Part shown: positions 6,178-27,881 of the stretch, one piece after another
How the letters are laid out: each line of letters begins with the position of its first letter
Numbering within the stretch: the first letter of the stretch is position 1
Origin: Gemmatimonadota bacterium
Lineage (GTDB): Bacteria > Gemmatimonadota > Gemmatimonadetes > Longimicrobiales > Gaopeijiaceae
Reading direction: 5' to 3'
DNA: 30,886 nucleotides
Assembly: GCA_039589315.1 (NCBI GenBank)
Contig: JBDHHQ010000052.1
Span: forward strand, 1-30,886
Notes under the pieces: generated by a model
Told to the model about the DNA's origin: nothing
What the model saw: the letters and a program-made list of their open reading frames with translations, nothing else
The model's database searches: none
Program-made: the position numbers and the translations under genes

Positions 6178-6960
6178 ATGCGTTGCCCCACTTGCGGTGA
6201 GCACCTGAGGCCCAACGAGTCCCGCTGTCCCACCTGCGGGGCGGCCGTCGCGCACCTGACCCCCACGGGGCCGGAGCTCGGGGGCGTGCTGAGGTGTCCG
6301 CGGTGCCGGTACCGGGGCGACGGGATCGCCTACTTCCGGCGACCCACCCATGTGGGCATCCTCGTGGGCGTGAGCCTCTTCACCTACGGCATCGGCGGGT
6401 TGGTGTACTGGCTGGCGCGGCGGAAGCACACGGTCTGTCCGAATTGTGGGCTGGGGTGGGAGCATGCGACGCACCAGCTGGCCTCGGGGGGTGGCGCGAG
6501 CCAGGAAAGGGCTCTCGGGAGCGCGGCGTCCCAGAGCGACGATCCTCCCCTTCCGCGGAGCGGGATCATCCGGCGCGTCCTGGGGGGGGCCTTGGCCGGC
6601 CTCGCCGTCCTGATCACCACTGTGGGGCTCGCGGAGGGCGAGCTCGCCGCCCTCGGCGTCGCCGCGGTCATCGGCGGGACCGGGTCGGCCACGTTCTACT
6701 GGGGGTGGAGGGCGCTGCAGGATCGGCGGAAGGCCATCGTCTCGGCCATTCAGCAGAAGATCCTGCGCCTCGCAGGCAAGAAGGGCGGGGCCTTGACCGT
6801 GACCGAGGTGGCCACCGAGCTGAGCCTGTCGCTGCCGGCGGCCGAGCGCGTCCTGCTCGCCATGGACGACGGCTTCCGGGTGCGGTCCGACGTCACCGAC
6901 GAGGGCCTGATCCTGTACGAGTTCCCGGAGCTCAAGCCCAGGAAGCAGCTAGGGCCCTGA
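6178..6960 (+). CDS. Zinc-ribbon membrane protein with C-terminal winged-helix-like domain
   Basis: CPTC...CPTC, CPRC...CPNC pairs; two hydrophobic hairpins; C-terminal LTVTEVATELSLSLPAAERVL...TDEGLILYEFP. Confidence 0.7.
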   Translation: MRCPTCGEHLRPNESRCPTCGAAVAHLTPTGPELGGVLRCPRCRYRGDGIAYFRRPTHVGILVGVSLFTYGIGGLVYWLARRKHTVCPNCGLGWEHATHQLASGGGASQERALGSAASQSDDPPLPRSGIIRRVLGGALAGLAVLITTVGLAEGELAALGVAAVIGGTGSATFYWGWRALQDRRKAIVSAIQQKILRLAGKKGGALTVTEVATELSLSLPAAERVLLAMDDGFRVRSDVTDEGLILYEFPELKPRKQLGP

Positions 6961-7907: not shown

Positions 7908-7936
7908 TTGTCTTTTGAGCGCCCGAGGCCTACCTT
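7908..7936 (+). promoter_or_regulatory. Putative sigma70 promoter of the TPR gene
   Basis: TTGTCT (7908-7913), 17 nt, TACCTT (7931-7936) in an AT-richer intergenic patch. Confidence 0.45.
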
Positions 7937-7971: not shown

Positions 7972-9759
7972 ATGTCCACATCCTTCGTCGTCCGCCTCGA
8001 CGACTACCGGGGCAAGAGAAGGCAGCGCCTGCGGCAGACGCTGGCGCTCAGCCGGCCGGATCCCGAGCGTGCGAGACTCACGGATCACCTCCGGGAGATC
8101 GTCGCGCTCGTAGGGGCAGACCGGGCCGCCGTGGTATGGGTCGACGAGTACGGCCCCGCGCTGGTCCACGTGCACTGCATCGTAGACCTCTTCAGCGACG
8201 TACCCCGGATCTCGTTCCCTGCCAAGTCACTGCGAGCCGCCTGGGAGGAAGGCATTCCGGGGTTGGCCGATTTCCCGGACCTGGACCGGTCCGAGGCCAA
8301 GCTCACGCCCGACGGGCCCCGCAGCCTCACCGCCGTAGCGTTGGGGAGCGACGGCGCACGGGCGTGGTTCCTCGCGGTCGACTCCGTGTTGCCCCGGCGA
8401 GCGCTCACTGAAGAAGTCCGCGGCGAGCTGATGTTCCTGGCCGGAGAAGCCTCGTCCATCGTGCTCCACCGTGACGATTCAGGGAGCTCCCCGGGGCGCG
8501 CCTCTCCCGAGGAGTCCGGATTCGCAGGGTGGCCCGTCCTGAAGGACATCGAAGGTCGGGAGAACGATGAGGTCTTGAACCGCCGGATCGCTGCACGCTT
8601 TCTGGTTGCACGTGCCGTGCAAGGGCTTGTGGAGGATGACTTCGCGGTGCTGCCCGAATCGCTGAGTCGCCAGGTTGCGGGTGTGCGCAATGAGATCCTG
8701 ACGCTGCCGTCCAGGGATGCCGAGGTGCGACTCTGGGGGGAGGTACTCGCCGCTCTCGAGCGTCAGGAGCTCCCGGAGCTGGCCTCTGCCACCCTGGAGC
8801 TCGCGCGGCTTGTGGAGCGCCAGGACCACCTTTCCGGCGCGCTCGAGCTATGCCGCCTCGCCTTTCGTGTGGCGGGGATCGCCGGCTCGGTCACCGTGGC
8901 CATGGATGCAGCGCGCTTCCATGGCCGCGTCTTTCGTCGCCTGGCCCGCTGGGACGAGGCGACGCGGTGGTACGGCTACGCCAGGGAGATCGCCCGTTGT
9001 GCCGGGGACGCCGGCCGGGAGTCGGTGATCCTGGACGGGTTGGCCAGCACCTACCGCGATCGTGGCAACCTGCCTGGCGCCAGAGAGCTGCTGCACGAGG
9101 CCCTGGCCCTCGGTCGCTTGGCCGGAGACCGCTACGCCGAAGGCAGCGCCCACCACAGCCTCGCCGTGATCGAGAAGATGTCGGGTCGCCTGGACCGGGC
9201 GATCTCCCATGGCTGGAGCGCCGTGCGGACCCATGGGGAGGGCGAGCCGTGGCTGGCCGCCTTGACGGACCTGGCCGGCGTCTTCGTGGAGGTGGGCGAG
9301 CTCAAGGCCGCCGAGGACGCGTACACGATCGTCATGGGCTCCTCGGGTAGCTACATCTACCGGACGTACGCCCTCGACGCGCTCGCCTACGTGGCGGCGC
9401 TGTCGGGGAACCGGCAGGAGTTCGAGCGACGGGCCGCCCGGGCCGACGCGGCGGGCTGGACGGAGGCGGCGCCTGCCATCAGGGCCGAGTTCTCCTACTT
9501 CCGCGGTAAGAGTTGGGAGGCCCTGGGAAACCTGGCCGACGCGGCAGACTGGTACGAGCGGGCCCTCGCCCTGGCGGATGGGCACGGGTTGAACAAGATC
9601 TACTTCGACGCCGAGGCGGCCCTCGGCAGACTAGAAGGTGGGTCCTCGGACGCCGGCGAGGGCAGCCCTGCGGCCGAGGACGCCGTCCCGGAGGTCATGG
9701 ACGGGATCCGCGAGGAGCTCACGGCCATGCGGGCGGCCCTGACCGAGCTCGTGGGGTAG
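7972..9759 (+). CDS. TPR protein with N-terminal GAF-like domain
   Basis: 595 aa from ATG 7972. N-terminal about 170 aa with GAF-like pattern (VGADRAAVVW...RSLTAVALG...FLAVDS...LMFLAGEAS); C-terminal TPR-like repeats (LDGLASTYRDRGNLPGARELLHEAL; YFRGKSWEALGNLADAADWYERAL). Confidence 0.75.
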   Translation: MSTSFVVRLDDYRGKRRQRLRQTLALSRPDPERARLTDHLREIVALVGADRAAVVWVDEYGPALVHVHCIVDLFSDVPRISFPAKSLRAAWEEGIPGLADFPDLDRSEAKLTPDGPRSLTAVALGSDGARAWFLAVDSVLPRRALTEEVRGELMFLAGEASSIVLHRDDSGSSPGRASPEESGFAGWPVLKDIEGRENDEVLNRRIAARFLVARAVQGLVEDDFAVLPESLSRQVAGVRNEILTLPSRDAEVRLWGEVLAALERQELPELASATLELARLVERQDHLSGALELCRLAFRVAGIAGSVTVAMDAARFHGRVFRRLARWDEATRWYGYAREIARCAGDAGRESVILDGLASTYRDRGNLPGARELLHEALALGRLAGDRYAEGSAHHSLAVIEKMSGRLDRAISHGWSAVRTHGEGEPWLAALTDLAGVFVEVGELKAAEDAYTIVMGSSGSYIYRTYALDALAYVAALSGNRQEFERRAARADAAGWTEAAPAIRAEFSYFRGKSWEALGNLADAADWYERALALADGHGLNKIYFDAEAALGRLEGGSSDAGEGSPAAEDAVPEVMDGIREELTAMRAALTELVG

Positions 9760-9882
9760 GCGCCGTGCTGGCGCCCTTCCACCATGAGCTCGTAGCGGTT
9801 TGGCTGGTGGCGTCGCCGCGAGCGGCCGCTGGGCCGGCGCGACCGCTGGACCGCTGTACCGCCTCGGTTATGCTGCCCTACG

Positions 9883-10056
9883 CTAGTTGCCGGAGCCGGG
9901 CGAGTGGTTCTGTGAGCCAGGCGAGTGGTTCTGTGAGCCAGGCGAATGACAGAGCGGATCGCTGGAATCACAGGGACCCGTGACAGAGCTGCACCCAGCC
10001 ATGCCGAGTCCCAGCATCAATGCCGCGGCGGCGAGAAGGAGACGTGCCCGTCGCAT
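9883..10056 (-). CDS. 57-aa secreted/lipoprotein precursor with three C-terminal HSPGS(Q/G)N repeats
   Basis: MRRARLLLAAAALMLGLGMAGC-SSVTGPCDSSDPLC-HSPGSQN-HSPGSQN-HSPGSGN*. GAGGGG RBS shortly before the ATG at 10056; basic-hydrophobic-lipobox signal. Confidence 0.8.
   Translation of the reverse strand: MRRARLLLAAAALMLGLGMAGCSSVTGPCDSSDPLCHSPGSQNHSPGSQNHSPGSGN
9886..9948 (-). repeat. 3 x 21-bp in-frame tandem repeat
   Basis: Minus strand: CATTCGCCTGGCTCACAGAAC / CACTCGCCTGGCTCACAGAAC / CACTCGCCCGGCTCCGGCAAC; copies 1 and 2 are 20/21 identical. Confidence 0.95.
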
Positions 10057-10195
10057 TGAGACCCCTCGTGTTGGTGTGAGCGTCGCTGGGGGACACCAAT
10101 AGCGTCGACCATTCCCCCTACATTTGTGAATGTCGGCCGGGCCGTGTGTGCCTGTGCAATCATTTATGGGCCAGGGTATATCTTTTTCGAAGGTC

Positions 10196-11002
10196 ATGAC
10201 CCTTATCGCTACGTTTTGCCGCGACGCCCCGGTCGCTGATCGCCTCGTCGAGGCTCTGAGACCCTGGCACGAGGTGGCCGAGGGGGGCTCTTGGCACGGG
10301 TTCCGCCGTATGGTGAGAGAGCGGCCCGCATCCGTGGCGGTGGTGGACGTGGACGCGGTCGGCCGCCTGCCGTCCGGGCGCGACGCGTTGGGGGAGATTC
10401 GCTCCTCGTACCCGCGGCTGGGGCTGGTGCTGCTCGTGCGCCAGACCCGCGACGCGGTGGCGTTGTTCGATCTCGGTCGGGTTGGAGTGCGGAACCTGGT
10501 CTTCATCAACGTGGACGGCCTGGAGCACCAGATCGTGCGGGCCGTGGCGCGGGCCGGCGAGAACGGGGCGACCGCCGTGGTGACGCGCACGCTGAGCGCA
10601 CACCTGTCGCGGCGGGAGCTCTTGACGGTGCATCGCGCGATGGACAGCGTGCACCGACGGTGGGACGCCGACGCGTTCGCGGAATCGGTGGATCTGAGCC
10701 GCCCGTTCCTGTCGGAGGTCCTCAAGGCCCGAGGACTTCCGTCAGTCGGCCACCTCCTTCTCTGGACCCGCCTGCTCCACGCAGGCCTCTGGCTCTCGGA
10801 GCCCGGCAGGACCGGGGAGAGCGTGTCTCGACAGCTGGAGTACTCCAGCGGCGCCGCCTTTCGGCGTGCGCTGAAGCACTACACCGGCGCCACCCCCACA
10901 CAGGTCGTGGAGCGGGGCGGGCTCGACTTCGTGCTGTCTTGTTTCTTGAGGGCTTGCCGTCTCGGGCCGCGGGGGGAACGGGCCTCGCTCACCGTGGCGT
11001 GA
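10196..11002 (+). CDS. AraC-family transcriptional regulator with receiver-like N-terminal domain
   Basis: C-terminal AraC signature (ESVSRQLEYSSGAAFRRALKHYTGATPTQV); N-terminal beta/alpha REC-like fold (VAVVDV...LVLLV). Start at ATG 10196. Confidence 0.85.
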   Translation: MTLIATFCRDAPVADRLVEALRPWHEVAEGGSWHGFRRMVRERPASVAVVDVDAVGRLPSGRDALGEIRSSYPRLGLVLLVRQTRDAVALFDLGRVGVRNLVFINVDGLEHQIVRAVARAGENGATAVVTRTLSAHLSRRELLTVHRAMDSVHRRWDADAFAESVDLSRPFLSEVLKARGLPSVGHLLLWTRLLHAGLWLSEPGRTGESVSRQLEYSSGAAFRRALKHYTGATPTQVVERGGLDFVLSCFLRACRLGPRGERASLTVA

Positions 11003-22405: not shown

Positions 22406-22533
22406 GTCACCTTCATTCACGAAGGCTGCCCCTCTGGACGCCTTCGCCGATACACTCAATAATTACATGCGTTTAGGGCTGTTACGAGCCCTGCTCTCGT
22501 GGTAGATTCATGAGGTGCTCGTGGGGGTCCGAA

Positions 22534-22552
22534 GTGAGACTTATGTGAGACT
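22534..22552 (+). repeat. Tandem direct repeat GTGAGACT x2, candidate integrase arm-type binding sites
   Basis: GTGAGACT at 22534-22541 and 22545-22552 (11-bp period), about 120 bp upstream of an integrase with an arm-binding N-terminus. Confidence 0.55.
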
Positions 22553-22592
22553 CATCTCAAAAGGTCTACCAAGACCCCCCCGGGGGGGTGAA

Positions 22593-22625
22593 GCGTGTGG
22601 GCCGCTGTGGCAGCGGCCCACACGC
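22593..22625. other. Perfect 15-bp inverted repeat (hairpin)
   Basis: GCGTGTGGGCCGCTG-TGG-CAGCGGCCCACACGC, next to the perfect palindrome A-C7-G7-T (22574-22589). Confidence 0.85.
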
Positions 22626-22670
22626 CTCTGGCTGCTCCGAAAAAATCTGAAAAAAACCCTGGAGGCAGCA

Positions 22671-23903
22671 GTGGCCCCTCCCCGCATGACCGAGCGACGA
22701 ATCGAGGACCTTCGATTCGATCCTGACGGCCCGTCGCGCCAGATCCACTTCGACAAGTCGTTTCCCGGCTTCGGCGTCCGGCTGTATCCGTCTGGGCGGA
22801 AGAGCTACGTCCTTCAGTACGGTGAGGCCCGCAGGCGCAAACTGCTGACGCTTGGCACTGTTGGTGTGCTGACGCTTTCCCAGGCTAGGACGCAGGCACG
22901 GCGACATCTCGTCGAGATTGGTGATGGAGCCGACCCGGTCGCAGCTCGCCGGGCCGAGCGCCTTCGTCGCAGGACGGCGGAGACGGTGCAGGAGCTGGCT
23001 GAGGCGTTCCTCGACGAACACGGAGACGACTGGTCCGAGAGCCACCGTCGGGACTCGGAGCGACGTGTGGCGACGAGATTGGCCTCAGCCATCGGACATA
23101 TCCGGGCAGAGGAGCTGACTCGAGCCGACGTCAACCGACTCCACGCCGAGATCACCAAGGCGGGCTCACCGACCGAGGCCAACAGAGTTCGGACTCTAAT
23201 CCATACTATCTACGAGTGGGGCTCGGAGTTCGGTTGCATACCCGAGACCCTACCCAACCCGGCCCGCCGCGCTCGCGGGTCCAAGAAGAGCCGCAACAAG
23301 GAGGAGAGCCGCACGCGCTACCTCAGAGTCGAGGAAGCCCCTGGGCTCTTGAAGGCGGCGGACGCAACCGGCGACCCAAGAGATGGCGTGCTCGTTCGTC
23401 TCTGGCTCCTCACTGGGCTTCGCAAGTCGGAGTTGCTAGGGCGTCGCTGGTCCGATCTGAATCTACAGCGTGCCACCTTAGAGATCCCCGAAACGAAGAG
23501 CCGTCGGCCGCATGAGGTACCGTTGTCGAAACGGGCCATTGGACTCTTCAAAGCACTCCCGCGCCCTGTCGATCCTAGCCTGCCGATCTTTCCCGGACCG
23601 GATCCCGCGCAACCCTTAAAGGACCTTAAGCGGCCCTGGGCCAAGATCCGCCGACTCTCGGGGCTGACTGATCTCCGCATTCATGACCTGAGACGGACTG
23701 CTGGCACATGGCTCACCCACCTCGCCGGCGTGCCCATCGCGAGCGTGTCCGCCCTGTTGAACCACAAGACGCCGGGCGCCGGTGTCACGCAGATCTACGC
23801 ACGCCCGATGGACGAGGCGCTGCGATCAGCCGTTGACGAGCTGGAGCGCATCCTGGTCCAGGTCGAGGCCAAGATGGAGCAGAAGGAGACCGCCCGTGGA
23901 TGA
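22671..23903 (+). CDS. Tyrosine recombinase/integrase with N-terminal arm DNA-binding domain (P4-like)
   Basis: GGAGG RBS, GTG 22671; N-terminal PGFGVRLYPSGRKSYVLQY; catalytic set TGLRKSE (R), TKS (K), HDLRRT (HxxR), LNHK (H), TQIY (Y). Confidence 0.95.
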   Translation: MAPPRMTERRIEDLRFDPDGPSRQIHFDKSFPGFGVRLYPSGRKSYVLQYGEARRRKLLTLGTVGVLTLSQARTQARRHLVEIGDGADPVAARRAERLRRRTAETVQELAEAFLDEHGDDWSESHRRDSERRVATRLASAIGHIRAEELTRADVNRLHAEITKAGSPTEANRVRTLIHTIYEWGSEFGCIPETLPNPARRARGSKKSRNKEESRTRYLRVEEAPGLLKAADATGDPRDGVLVRLWLLTGLRKSELLGRRWSDLNLQRATLEIPETKSRRPHEVPLSKRAIGLFKALPRPVDPSLPIFPGPDPAQPLKDLKRPWAKIRRLSGLTDLRIHDLRRTAGTWLTHLAGVPIASVSALLNHKTPGAGVTQIYARPMDEALRSAVDELERILVQVEAKMEQKETARG

Positions 23904-24813
23904 CCATCGGTGGTGGATGGACACAGAGCCGGTCCCACTGTCAGACGCGCTGGGCAAGCAGACGGTGCTGGACGGGATCAAGGTCCCCAGGGGCGCTGTA
24001 CAGCGGTTCAAACGGCTTGGGCGCGACGACAGGACCGCCCTGACCGCACCCCACCGTGCGTTCGGTCACGCGCTTTGGACTCTGGCGCGAGATGAACTCA
24101 GCGCGATACTCGAGCGCGTGGCCCCGATCGTGGCAACCATTCAGCTGTCGGATCTGAATGGTTCGTGGGGCGAGTCGGTGCTTCCACAGTACGGTCCTTT
24201 GCGCGCCGGCTGGGACGCAGTGGCCGATTGGTGGGTGCATACGATCCGGTGGCCGGGAGAGATCTGGAACGCTAAGGGACAGGACTGGGAGCGGGCACTA
24301 CCACCCTGGTTTGGACTTGGCTGCATCCGGCTCGCACACGACTTCGTCAGGAACGACCCGGACTCAGGCTTCAGCGTCGTCCGCGCAAAGGCGTTCCTGT
24401 TCGAAGAACCCGACTCGGAAGTCTGGCTGTCCGGAACGCCGGTCTCCGACGAGACTGTGCACCTCGAACTGTGTGGGGACTTCGCTCGCGACAAGGAAGA
24501 GAGCCGGGAGGAGTTCGTCCTGCGGCTGATGTCGATGGTCACGAGTGAAATCCTCACCACAGTGACGCTTCAGGCCGGCAGCAACGATGCCTGGTGGAAC
24601 CTGGCCGAGATGCCTCGTGATCCGAGGACAATGGGCTCTGGGGACGTTGGCCGTCCGCCCGAGCTAAGGGCCGTAGCTGTCAAGATTGTCGCAAGAATGT
24701 TCGGCAAAGAGGTGCCTGACGAGAGCAGGGCAGTCAAGACGGATGCCCAATTGTCACTCATGAAACGACTTACCTTCCTCCGGAATCCCGACTGGCCAAC
24801 ACCGATCCCCTGA
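23896..24813 (+). CDS. Hypothetical Trp-rich protein
   Basis: AAGGAG RBS and GTG 23896 overlapping the integrase stop; 305 aa; no family recognised. Confidence 0.7.
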   Translation: MDDHRWWMDTEPVPLSDALGKQTVLDGIKVPRGAVQRFKRLGRDDRTALTAPHRAFGHALWTLARDELSAILERVAPIVATIQLSDLNGSWGESVLPQYGPLRAGWDAVADWWVHTIRWPGEIWNAKGQDWERALPPWFGLGCIRLAHDFVRNDPDSGFSVVRAKAFLFEEPDSEVWLSGTPVSDETVHLELCGDFARDKEESREEFVLRLMSMVTSEILTTVTLQAGSNDAWWNLAEMPRDPRTMGSGDVGRPPELRAVAVKIVARMFGKEVPDESRAVKTDAQLSLMKRLTFLRNPDWPTPIP

Positions 24814-24912
24814 GGGCGGAAATCACCAGCGCAATTCCCGCCGAACCCCTCCCCCACCTTCCGGGCAACCCACGGATGACCCGTGGTGACGTACCTGAAC
24901 GAGGTGGGGATC

Positions 24913-25155
24913 ATGAGCTTCCTATTGACGGTCGAGGAAGTCGCTGACCGGCTCGGGGTCAGCAAGTACACTCTCTACAAATGGCGCAAGGACGGCTTCG
25001 GGCCGTCGTTCCTTCGCTTGCGCGGCAACGACGTTCGCTACGAGGAGAACGACCTCCGGGAGTGGATCGAGTGGCGTAAGTCTGGCTCACTCGCCGAGGA
25101 ACGGGCTCGCGGCGATCGCCTCCACGGCGCTGCCGAGTCGGGGGGCTTCCGATGA
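24913..25155 (+). CDS. HTH excisionase/AlpA-like protein
   Basis: LLTVEEVADRLGVSKYTLYKWRKDGFGPSFLRLRGNDVRY (HTH_17/AlpA-type); GAGGT RBS; ATGA-coupled to the primase. Confidence 0.9.
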   Translation: MSFLLTVEEVADRLGVSKYTLYKWRKDGFGPSFLRLRGNDVRYEENDLREWIEWRKSGSLAEERARGDRLHGAAESGGFR

Positions 25156-27881
25156 CTGCCGATTGGATAGAGGCGGAGAAGGAACGCATCCGTGATGCGA
25201 ACCCCATCGAGGATGTCGCCGAAGCTCTCGGAGCAGAGCTGAAGAAGTCCGGGCGGCAGCTCGAAGCTCGCTGTCCGCTCCCCGGGCACGACGATCAGAC
25301 CCCGTCGTTTTTCATCGACCCCGGACGAGAAGTCTTCTTCTGCCACGGCTGCGGTCGCGGCGGACACGTGTTCTCGCTCGTGCAGGAAGCTCACGGCTTC
25401 GACTTCGTGGAGGCGAAGAAGTGGCTCGCGCAACGCGCTGGGATTCCGCTCAGCGCGGAGTGGCAGAGACTGAGCGGCGAGGAGTTCGTGGCTCTAGAGG
25501 AGGAGCGTAGGGCCGAGGAAACGCGACTGGAGAAGCTCGAACGCGTTGTCGCGAAGGCTGCCGGGCAGCTCACTCCTGAGCACCGGGCGTACTTACGCCG
25601 TCGTGGCCTCACGGACGAGACCATCGCGGCGCTCAAGCTGGGGACTTGGCGAGATAGGCACGGCGCTTGTGTTCTTCTTCCGGTCTTGCGGCACGGGCGG
25701 CCCGTCGAAGTCATCGGACACTTCCCGGGCGCCAAGAAGGATGACTTCCCCCCGAAGTATCTGTTCACCAAGGACCGCGACCGCCCGACGCCTGGCCTCG
25801 AACTGGCCCAGCCCCGTCAGGAGACCATTGTGGTCGAGGGCTTCTTCGACTGGGCCGCCCTCGTCCAGGCGGGCTTCGACGCGGTCGCGCTCCTGGGTTC
25901 CGGAGCTGCTGATTCGGTAGTGGAGCGCCTCCGGCGGCCGAAGAGGGTCTACCTAATGCTCGACGGCGACGGCGCAGGCAGGGAGGCAGCGGAGACGCTG
26001 GCCCGCGAGCTGTATCCGAAGGCCGCCATCGTCGAGCTGCCCGATGGGAAAGACCCAAACGACCTGCTGGCTTACCTCGGGGCCGTGGCCTTCGAGGAGA
26101 CCATCCGCGAGCTGTTGGCCTCCGCCCGGGATCCTCTCGAGCTCGCGTGGGAACGGGCCACCACGCCTGACGACGTGAAAGAGAGGGTGGTACCCCTGCT
26201 GGCGCGGCTGGATGATCTCGAGCTCGATATGGCGCTGAACAACGCTCCCCTCAGGGACCGGGGCATCCGAAAAGAAACGCTCCGCTCCGAGATCGAGGCC
26301 GCTAGGCCCCGATCGTCCGACGGCAATGCCGAGCCCGCTGAGCCGACGCCTTCAAGCAGGGAGGAGCTATGGGAGCGTGCGAAGAGGATCCTGACCTCGG
26401 ACATACCCCTGGAGCTCTTCCGCGAATCCCTGACCCACGGTGGGTACGCCGGAGAGACCATCCCAGCCGAGATCATCAACGTCGCGATACACTCCCGGGT
26501 CTTCGACCGACCGATCAACGTCGGTGTGTTCGGCCCGTCCTCCGGTGGCAAGTCGTTCACGGTTCAGGTTGTCATGGCATATCATCCGCGCCATGCGGTT
26601 CACGAGCTAACAGCCTCGTCTGAACGCGCCCTCATCTACTCCGACTTCAAGACGGAGCACGCCTTCGTCTACATCGGCGAGGCCAGCGCCGTGGCCAAGG
26701 AGGGCGTCGGGGCTTCCATCATCCGAGAACTGGCCTGGGGCAACGGGCTCCGATACGAGACGGTCGAGAAGGATGAGATGACGGGCAAGCTAGGTCCTCG
26801 TCTCATCGAGCAGCCCGGTCCTACTGGACTAATCACAACCTCGACCACCGCGCTCGAGCCGGAGCTTTCGACGCGGATGATGAAGGTCACGATTACGGAT
26901 GACCCTGACCAGACGGCAAGAATCGTCCGCGGGGTGGTCGAAGACCTCAAGGGCGTCCATAAGGCTGTCCCCGACTACGACGAGTTCGTTGCCGCCTCGG
27001 AATACCTCGAACGCTACGGCGACCGAGAAGTCGTCGTCCCATTCGCCGATCCATTGAATGACGTGCCGTCGGAGGAAGTCCGGGTCCGAAGAGACATCCA
27101 TCAGATTGCCAGCTTCTTGCGCGTCATGGCCTACATCCACCAGGAGAACCGCGAGCGGGACGCTGAGAGCCGCATCATCGCAACCGTTGACGACTATGCG
27201 GAGACTTACCGGCTGCTGGAGCCCATCCTCGGCCAGACGCTAACAGCAGCGACCCCTGCGATTCGTGAGACAGTTACAGCCGTCGAGGGCGTCCTGAAGG
27301 ACAAGGTCGGCTCAACTTGCACCAAGATCGAGGTCGCCACAGCCCTCAGCCGGGCGCCCTCAACAGCGGGCAAACGCATCAACGACGCGATTGAAGCCGG
27401 CTTCCTGGTCAACAATGCGGGGCAAGGACAACCTGCAGAAATTGCGCTGGGAGACCCTCTGCCGATGGAGCGGAGCGTGTTGCCGACCCAAGAGGACGTG
27501 GCGGACTGGTGGGCAGAGCACGGCGACTCTAGTACTTCCTCTTCCACTACCCCCGGCGAATCCGCCGAATCGCCGAAACGCACCGCTAATCAATTGATTG
27601 ACAATGATTTAACGTTTCGACAGGGCACCGAAACGGAAACGCAAGCCCAAGACGGTGGCGATAGCGGTTCAACCGGTTTCGGCACCGTTTCGATAGGCAA
27701 CCGCAACGCTAACATGATGAAGGGCAATGACATAGATAGCCGTTTCGGCGTTTCGACGGAATCCTGGGGAGTAGAAGAGAGAGAAGTGTCACCGAACGCA
27801 GCAAACGGGATCGGCCAGGGCACTCTCGACCTGCAAAGAATGCCGCCTGCGGAAGACTCCGAGGACGCGGAACGCATTTAG
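25152..27881 (+). CDS. DnaG-type primase (CHC2 Zn finger + Toprim) fused to P-loop AAA+ (MCM-like) domain and winged helix
   Basis: CPLPGH...CHGC; VVEGFFD, LDGDGAG, GKDPND; Walker A GPSSGGKS; Walker B-like VYIGE; ELSTR; C-terminal TKIEVATALSRAPSTAGKRINDAIEAGFL. Confidence 0.88.
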   Translation: MTADWIEAEKERIRDANPIEDVAEALGAELKKSGRQLEARCPLPGHDDQTPSFFIDPGREVFFCHGCGRGGHVFSLVQEAHGFDFVEAKKWLAQRAGIPLSAEWQRLSGEEFVALEEERRAEETRLEKLERVVAKAAGQLTPEHRAYLRRRGLTDETIAALKLGTWRDRHGACVLLPVLRHGRPVEVIGHFPGAKKDDFPPKYLFTKDRDRPTPGLELAQPRQETIVVEGFFDWAALVQAGFDAVALLGSGAADSVVERLRRPKRVYLMLDGDGAGREAAETLARELYPKAAIVELPDGKDPNDLLAYLGAVAFEETIRELLASARDPLELAWERATTPDDVKERVVPLLARLDDLELDMALNNAPLRDRGIRKETLRSEIEAARPRSSDGNAEPAEPTPSSREELWERAKRILTSDIPLELFRESLTHGGYAGETIPAEIINVAIHSRVFDRPINVGVFGPSSGGKSFTVQVVMAYHPRHAVHELTASSERALIYSDFKTEHAFVYIGEASAVAKEGVGASIIRELAWGNGLRYETVEKDEMTGKLGPRLIEQPGPTGLITTSTTALEPELSTRMMKVTITDDPDQTARIVRGVVEDLKGVHKAVPDYDEFVAASEYLERYGDREVVVPFADPLNDVPSEEVRVRRDIHQIASFLRVMAYIHQENRERDAESRIIATVDDYAETYRLLEPILGQTLTAATPAIRETVTAVEGVLKDKVGSTCTKIEVATALSRAPSTAGKRINDAIEAGFLVNNAGQGQPAEIALGDPLPMERSVLPTQEDVADWWAEHGDSSTSSSTTPGESAESPKRTANQLIDNDLTFRQGTETETQAQDGGDSGSTGFGTVSIGNRNANMMKGNDIDSRFGVSTESWGVEEREVSPNAANGIGQGTLDLQRMPPAEDSEDAERI
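27540..27778. repeat. Iteron array in a large imperfect palindrome, candidate replication origin
   Basis: About ten CGAAACG/CGTTTCG-type heptamers in both orientations; outer arms 27561-27581 and 27740-27760 match 18/21 as inverted repeats; two AT-rich inserts. Confidence 0.7.

Follow-up and report, generated by a model that had tools for sequence, protein, structure and literature searches.

In the peptide-signalling systems grouped as RRNPP, a tetratricopeptide repeat (TPR) receptor is encoded next to a short propeptide, and the receptors act on transcription in different ways: NprR, PlcR and AimR carry their own DNA-binding domain, RapF acts on the transcription factor ComA by binding, and the Rap protein of pLS20 is reportedly an anti-repressor. 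Enterococcal sex pheromones, which are cut from the signal peptides of ordinary lipoproteins, are sensed by a cytoplasmic TPR-type receptor as well. The criteria for recognizing RRNPP systems comprise a propeptide of 10–100 amino acids (aa), its secretion by the Sec pathway, a receptor of 250–500 aa, the presence of TPRs and the adjacency of the two genes (PMC10075063; this and the other PMC articles are cited for the accessible parts of their text). In those parts, lipoproteins get no mention among the criteria of PMC10075063, intracellular peptide receptors are treated as a Gram-positive feature (PMC10075063; PMC13220807), and the 2026 review PMC13220807 does not mention Gemmatimonadota. The present work concerns a stretch of 30,886 nucleotides from a Gemmatimonadota bacterium of the Gaopeijiaceae (assembly GCA_039589315.1, contig JBDHHQ010000052.1, positions 1 to 30,886 of the forward strand; hereafter, the window), and in particular a cassette of three genes encoding a GAF-TPR protein, a small lipoprotein-type propeptide and an AraC regulator; with a probability of about 0.6, these genes form a peptide signalling circuit which works like Rap-Phr, in a diderm phylum, its precursor being a lipoprotein and its output the AraC protein. 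The coding elements of the cassette are the following (positions in the window, strand in brackets):

7972–9759 (+): GAF-TPR protein, 595 aa; open reading frame (ORF) with GAF domain at about 31–165, helical domain at about 184–262 and seven TPRs at about 271–555
8062–8466 (+): GAF-fold domain with conserved WxDEYG and GSDGxRxWF motifs, from model, fold match and alignment
9034–9036 (+): codon of Asp355, TPR position 5, in the concave groove; predicted specificity residue for peptide position 5, from covariation
9883–10056 (−): propeptide gene, 57 aa, lipoprotein-type; ORF with Cys at 20–23 in 90/90 relatives
9991–10056 (−): predicted signal peptide (1–21) and lipobox cysteine C22, from sequence pattern
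9886–9948 (−): tandem heptapeptides HSPGSQN, HSPGSQN, HSPGSGN, predicted mature signal, from sequence and purifying selection between copies
10196–11002 (+): pseudo-receiver/AraC transcription factor, 268 aa, from start conservation, model and HTH_18 match

The likeness to Rap-Phr lies in a cytoplasmic TPR receptor without a helix-turn-helix (HTH), an adjacent small exported propeptide, the same inferred polarity of the bound peptide and a short C-terminal signal, which in Phr is sometimes tandemly duplicated (PMC11343458). The cassette differs from Rap-Phr in its diderm phylum, its lipoprotein signal, its convergent layout, the N-terminal GAF domain of its 595-aa receptor, a dedicated pseudo-receiver AraC protein divergent from the peptide gene, and up to eight near-identical copies of the peptide. 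Moreover, N226 in the groove of Rap3T anchors the main chain of the peptide and a groove Asn is conserved in the Rap branch (PMC11343458), whereas the cassette receptors, compared without residue-level Rap equivalence, have no invariant groove Asn (N359 in 36/82). With NprR-NprX, PlcR-PapR and AimR-AimP the cassette shares the TPR groove and the adjacent propeptide, but its DNA binding resides on the separate AraC protein. With the enterococcal pheromones it shares the lipoprotein-precursor signal and the cytoplasmic TPR-type receptor; here, however, the mature tail would be the signal, and the signal-peptide positions show no covariation with the groove.

A first-pass annotation, made from the DNA letters and their translations, had read the locus as an RRNPP-like cassette; the working logic of that reading is supported, and RRNPP membership is not, the fold matches to Rap being no better than those to unrelated TPR proteins. 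Three of the five RRNPP criteria are found (propeptide size, TPRs and directly neighbouring genes); the length of the GAF-TPR protein exceeds the receptor range owing to the GAF domain, and the GAF-less relatives (about 420–440 aa) fall within it, while the Sec lipoprotein-type signal is recognized by sequence pattern only. The RRNPP host range, i.e. Bacillota and their mobile elements, is not matched, the named loci being from Gemmatimonadota and no viral locus being confirmed. In a profile search against the PDB, Rap was matched at E 1.4e-4, far behind LGN/Pins (1e-14); in the fold search the Z-scores were 17.7 for RapH (root-mean-square deviation 4.3 over 289 residues), 16.6 for Rap pLS20 (model 204–541), 15.9 for NprR, 13.7 for PlcR and 19.9 for eukaryotic LGN. 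No RRNPP-specific Pfam family is among the matches listed (25 of 29 families) and no NCBIfam model exceeds its cut-off. The cassette is not filed as an RRNPP member because LGN/Pins surpass Rap in both sequence and fold searches and no NCBIfam model passes. The convergent layout and the lipoprotein-type signal, which the first-pass annotation had listed as departures from canonical RRNPP loci, are both present.

Linkage, propeptide and receptor covariation

Relatives were collected by the GAF-TPR protein sequence alone, the neighbouring genes being no part of the selection; 176 loci were inspected (the window included, some redundant across collections), 121 of which were testable, the end of the TPR gene being complete and followed by 700 bp or more. 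The AraC gene lies beside the GAF-TPR gene in 121/121, and a convergent lipobox ORF follows the TPR gene in 112/121 by a script using a relaxed lipobox pattern (a stricter version matched only 72/121); in the remaining nine loci the peptide ORF was recognized by eye, seven being intact, one frameshifted and one spanning an assembly gap. Since small lipobox ORFs are rare genome-wide (27 in the 6.67 Mb of the source genome) and yet 112 of 121 loci have one, the linkage between peptide and TPR genes exceeds chance. The three ORFs of the window, i.e. the TPR gene, the 57-aa precursor and AraC, sit where they had been placed at first pass, and their co-occurrence extends across genomes, so that the refuting condition named at first pass, a lack of such conservation, does not apply. 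All relatives bearing names are Gemmatimonadota (74 of 75 genome loci, the other being an 'uncultured bacterium'), and of the 314 genomes of the family 98 have the GAF-TPR form, in almost every case as a single match.

The propeptide consists of a basic start, a hydrophobic stretch, MAG-C22, a C-x6-C loop and the three heptapeptides; its gene converges with that of the TPR protein at a distance of 123 bp, an arrangement also found in relatives. Between the two stop codons nothing was seen besides the coding repeat, and a scan of 9740–10220 for consensus promoters and terminators gave no match, nor any intrinsic terminator between the convergent genes. Among 93 distinct precursors of similar size 69 have repeats, at period 7 in 64 of them; the peptide unit occurs in 1–8 copies over the family (2–8 in the repeated precursors) and in at least 50 variants, e.g. 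HTIGSGN, YQPGPNG, HNPDAGN, YNPDPGQ and IQPGTGN. Adjacent copies (191 pairs) differ by 469 synonymous and only 17 non-synonymous codon changes, the differences falling on the third (473), first (23) and second (18) codon position; the ORF is therefore translated, each copy being held to the same amino-acid sequence. The unit differs between lineages and follows the receptor tree, and the last one closes the protein in 74/90 precursors. In one lineage (L008, L112, L194) an in-frame stop stands right before the repeats while the TPR and AraC matches remain, possibly a variant deaf to its own signal or non-producing, or an assembly error; in L074 two tandem peptide genes lie behind the TPR gene, one with its motif in a Cys-Cys loop, the other at a free C-terminus.

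As for the receptor, no signal peptide is visible and, as judged from its sequence, the protein is cytoplasmic; it has no DNA-binding domain, and no HTH had been evident at first pass. Pfam TPR_12 matches residues 353–413 (E 1e-10) and is found in 82/82 relatives, and the TPR matches together span about 310–537. In the structure model (mean predicted local distance difference test, pLDDT, 86; predicted template modelling score 0.83) the N-terminal alpha/beta domain matches GAF folds (3hcy, Z 13.0, model 29–175; 4zmu, Z 13.6), and GAF clusters are matched too. In the groove of TPR2 the arginines R315, R319 and R322 are kept in 78, 72 and 82 of 82 and D/E469 is conserved too, all of them candidate anchors for the two ends of the peptide; G356 is invariant. 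A stand-alone 164-aa paralog of the GAF-like domain is encoded at G000:C54:32461-32955 (+), its neighbours being, by reading of their sequences, a small membrane protein, a PspA-like coiled-coil gene and an extracytoplasmic function (ECF)-type sigma factor; short matches to the GAF-like part of the receptor also occur in other relatives.

The contact between peptide and receptor is well supported by covariation. In 83 triples eight binary peptide traits were compared with 838 alignment columns, 265 of them from AraC, the null being the maximum over all columns for each of 500 tree-simulated traits. The pair of Pro at peptide position 5 and TPR residue 355 gave a normalized mutual information of 0.78, the highest of the 838 columns (the next being 0.34); the null maximum was 0.57 and none of the 500 simulations reached the observed value (p 0.002, or 0.016 across the eight traits). 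Ser, Thr or Asn at position 5 is paired with an acidic residue 355 (Asp or Glu), a rule which fits 79/82 rows; Pro is accompanied by Val, Ser, Gly, Ile, Leu or Thr (26/27) and Ala by Ala (8/8). Independent pairs on a tree made without the helix of residue 355 gave median p values of 0.016 and 0.031. A first held-out set of 69 further loci contained 12 less than 95% identical to earlier ones, 8 of 10 scored loci fitting and the two unscored ones (Thr with Asp) fitting by eye; a second set of 10 loci, two of them gapped at 355, gave 7 fits among the other 8, two of these being near-identical. Altogether, 15 of the 18 held-out pairs that were scored fit.

Residue 355 is TPR position 5, which belongs to the ligand-contacting TPR positions 2, 5, 6, 9, 12 and 13 (PMC1261162), a groove definition applied after residue 355 had been seen. 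By multi-state mutual information, 11 of the 35 top-five columns for the peptide positions are TPR groove positions; AraC columns taken as mock peptide positions gave 0.37 groove columns for every five, none of 20000 sets of seven attaining 11, and the signal and linker positions of the propeptide 2 of 50. Position 1 covaries with 510 and 473, position 2 with 433 and 402, position 3 with 466, position 5 with 355, and position 6 with 429 and 392; the pair 2-317 is not significant after phylogenetic correction. The order of the covarying pairs along the predicted groove is spatially sensible, and the inferred polarity agrees with that of Rap3T, where D338 lies at the N-end and Q182 at the C-end of the peptide (PMC11343458). 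The peptide thus very probably binds the TPR protein; the first-pass proposals that the TPR protein is the receptor and HSPGS(Q/G)N the signal unit gain from position 5 tracking residue 355, from the enrichment of groove positions among the covarying columns, and from the heptapeptide being the unit under selection.

The AraC regulator and its predicted operator

The AraC gene had been drawn from 10130 to 11002 at first pass; its end holds, and its start is most likely 10196, the Met1 encoded there being more than 90% conserved and 10129–10192 being the predicted promoter of the peptide gene. HTH_18 is matched at E 8e-9 in the protein of the window and is present in 82/82 relatives. The structure model (pLDDT 91) has an N-terminal domain that matches receiver domains, in agreement with the receiver-like domain seen at first pass. 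Asp51 is kept in 76/82 and D10 in 66; in comparison with canonical REC-AraC response regulators, which have a Thr/Ser on strand 4 and a Lys after strand 5, however, positions 81–83 (taken from the strand order of the model) are mostly A, R and P, with no conserved Thr/Ser, and no conserved Lys is found at 101–108. The domain is therefore called a pseudo-receiver. Mutual information between TPR and AraC (82 pairs, effective number of sequences 65) showed no outlier above the intra-protein level, the intra-protein control itself being noisy.

The regulatory elements, all predicted, are:

7908–7936 (+): housekeeping-type promoter of the TPR gene, −35 TTGTCT at 7908 and −10 TACCTT at 7931, from pattern
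10129–10134 (−): −10 box of the peptide gene, weak, with the form xAnnnT and no first T; A in 53/55 and T in 55/55 loci
10155–10192 (−): AraC operator, half-sites 10176–10192 and 10155–10171, 21 bp apart, from core conservation and the 21-bp lag

The pattern TTGY, a spacer of 16–19, then TANNNT, lies upstream of the TPR gene in 87/90 loci (shuffled mean 2.7, maximum 9). Upstream of the peptide gene the core GAYCTTCGRAAAAGRYATA is found in 55/59 loci, abutting the AraC start codon; a similar second block follows 21 bp on, the best lag, though modestly so (3.31 vs 2.71), and the xAnnnT box comes after it. The distal half-site thus abuts the start codon of AraC, while the proximal one reaches the −35 position of the peptide gene; 29/66 loci of the GAF-less family have a direct repeat at lag 21, and no shuffle has one at that lag. 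A 21-bp spacing is characteristic of AraC/XylS tandem sites, and AraC, XylS and RhaS are activators with tandem direct-repeat operators. The further example of MtlR, whose two similar blocks lie upstream of −35 as in AraC/XylS activators generally (PMC4514859), shares with the cassette both HTH_18 and two blocks about two helical turns apart upstream of −35, so that AraC probably activates the peptide gene. Such activation, which had been suggested at first pass, is indicated by the 21-bp tandem site together with the weak −10 box, and we consider it quite probable; AraC may also limit its own gene. Unlike those activators, the cassette AraC has the receiver-fold N-domain without canonical Thr/Ser and Lys, and its presumed input is the TPR protein rather than a small molecule. 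A pattern of the operator 16-mer, run over 41 genomes, found one site in 17, two in 1 and none in 23. The second-best tandem match, at the TPR promoter of the source genome (score 18.0), was rejected as an operator, lying in the range of the controls (maxima 21–25) and being absent in relatives; the reading of the operator as an RNA hairpin was dropped on inspection, the stem mismatches favouring neither strand.

Proposed circuit and its alternatives

In the circuit proposed here, the small gene product would be exported and, as its lipobox suggests, lipid-anchored; its tail would be cut into heptapeptides, which would re-enter the cytoplasm, probably via an oligopeptide ATP-binding cassette importer (the source genome encodes one LspA and five family-5 solute-binding proteins). 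The TPR protein, presumably made constitutively, would hold the peptide in its concave groove with the N-terminus at TPR6-7 and the C-terminus towards TPR2-3, an orientation supported by the covariation; having no DNA-binding domain, it would control the neighbouring AraC by protein contact, as the linkage of the two genes suggests and as we consider likely, and AraC would activate the peptide gene from the tandem 21-bp operator, a step supported by the promoter anatomy. Binding of the peptide would free AraC from inhibition by the TPR protein, giving positive feedback on the peptide gene; this anti-activator scheme is slightly favoured over a negative, timer-like loop. In the GAF-TPR family, the GAF domain would add a second input.

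A number of observations weigh against this circuit. The lipid anchor would confine the precursor to the envelope, and neither a dedicated protease nor a dedicated importer is encoded with the cassette; not every peptide has a free C-terminus, 16/90 having tails past the last unit and 4 lying in a Cys-Cys loop. Only position 5 passes the family-wise test, the remaining seven peptide traits failing it, and the pairs 4-359, 6-429 and 3-466 (p 0.31–0.42) are not significant after phylogenetic correction; the 3 misses among the 18 scored held-out pairs are all xxPDSG peptides. Finally, AraC is missing from the fetched DNA of 17 among the 88 GAF-less TPR loci, and with the operator matrix a single strong site appears in the source genome, no output beyond the peptide gene being found.

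The alternative that survives best, unlikely though we consider it, keeps the same receptor-peptide pair and makes it sense its own cell: the peptide would stay in its own envelope, or the TPR protein would bind the unexported precursor, and the system would report the export of lipoproteins, proteolysis in the periplasm or a leaky outer membrane, or be a timer. The universal lipobox, which anchors the precursor, fits it; so does the outer membrane, which would retain a released peptide, and the fixed chromosomal place of the cassette (DacB in 65/88, EamA in 90/144 loci), the covariation speaking for contact and not for the route of the peptide. On the other hand, a repertoire of 50 or more heptapeptide variants, with receptors changed to match, and some 20 family matches in single genomes are more in keeping with kin-specific communication than with a housekeeping stress gauge, and selection on every copy fits the release of several units; passage of the signal between cells is thus the version we lean towards.

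It is less probable still that the peptide binds the TPR protein while the latter acts on another protein, AraC answering a different signal such as phosphorylation of Asp51. The retention of that residue in most AraC proteins, the GAF-less loci without a nearby AraC and two further AraC paralogs of the source genome without TPR or peptide neighbour point this way; the adjacency of AraC to every GAF-TPR gene tested, its staying with the TPR gene even in the order AraC-TPR-peptide (4 loci), the receiver without conserved Thr/Ser and Lys, and the lack of any kinase seen in the cassette neighbourhood argue for the neighbouring AraC as target of the TPR protein. That there is no signalling at all, the small ORF being a structural low-complexity lipoprotein or the precursor of a ribosomally synthesized and post-translationally modified peptide (RiPP) within merely syntenic genes, is very improbable, for, even if the wider neighbourhood is syntenic too (Zn-ribbon gene in 144/144, EamA, DacB) and tandem cores are known in RiPP precursors, the peptide-groove covariation beats the tree-simulated nulls and the AraC and signal-peptide controls, the trio recurs, also in multi-copy, in other families of the class, and the neighbours (Zn-ribbon, EamA, DacB, flavin adenine dinucleotide (FAD) oxidase) include no modifying enzyme, the oxidase lying in the fetched DNA of only 2/176 loci.

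Wider distribution and significance

The GAF-less form of the TPR protein occurs across the class; 91 distinct loci, a non-random subset, were collected, and among the 88 complete ones 76 have the peptide, 71 AraC and 66 both. Family matches at E 1e-15 or better number 19 and 21 in two genomes (not every one inspected) and 0 in two others; in G039 and G027, with about 20 matches each, most of the inspected ones are accompanied by a peptide of their own with the terminus G-x-(I/L/M)-G-S-G-x, and several lack AraC. In another family (f3; L014-L017, L019) AraC and then TPR lie on one strand, and an acidic peptide with the terminal motif G(F/Y)xNNN was seen in two loci; the order AraC-TPR-peptide, found in four loci of another family, keeps AraC with TPR though not divergent from the peptide gene. 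Many GAF-less cassettes (L043-L060, L235-L270) hold a single motif in a terminal Cys-Cys loop, e.g. C..GGSGTC, which suggests disulfide-closed signals, and clear 21-bp direct repeats are present in their promoters. One GAF-less member (P0131) bears an NCBI name from Longimicrobium terrae, a cultured species.

In the window the cassette is flanked by EamA and DacB, the neighbours also including the Zn-ribbon protein and the FAD oxidase. The double zinc-ribbon membrane protein upstream of the TPR gene (6178–6960, +), present in all 144 loci with enough flank, is more constant than EamA and may or may not be part of the system. Farther downstream, 22515–27881, with a tyrosine integrase (22515–23903) and then a 909-aa CHC2 zinc finger/Toprim protein (25152–27881), probably represents a mobile element that has integrated; tRNA genes were not found in the window. 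Among viral contigs 23 pattern matches were obtained and none confirmed, plasmids gave a single partial match, to a Gemmatirosa record of 1.1 Mb with 23% cover, and PHROGs only weak matches, all of unknown function.

No published description of the cassette was found in the open literature (subscription papers and supplements being outside the scope of the search), and it is apparently undescribed in print; new here are the covariation at the level of residues, the test of selection on codons and the mapping of the promoters. Gemmatimonadota are abundant in soils and sediments. As a tentative extension of the circuit, they may possess a class-wide, lineage-coded peptide language independent of the RRNPP systems of Bacillota, with multi-copy precursors that bear a lipid anchor and may sit at the cell surface or in vesicles, a groove code in which residue 355 reads position 5, a pseudo-receiver AraC relay with positive feedback, some 20 channels in some genomes and a GAF-fused form which gates the signal by a second ligand. 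If true, a conserved intracellular peptide circuit in a diderm phylum would overturn the Gram-positive split, and it would have to be explained by what route a precursor with a lipid anchor gives rise to a signal in the cytoplasm, two membranes away. The system lends itself to direct tests, the ligand being a predictable unmodified heptapeptide, the specificity residue named and the promoter mapped; the dozens of natural receptor-peptide pairs would be orthogonal parts, and may help to steer the behaviour or the cultivation of a poorly cultured phylum.

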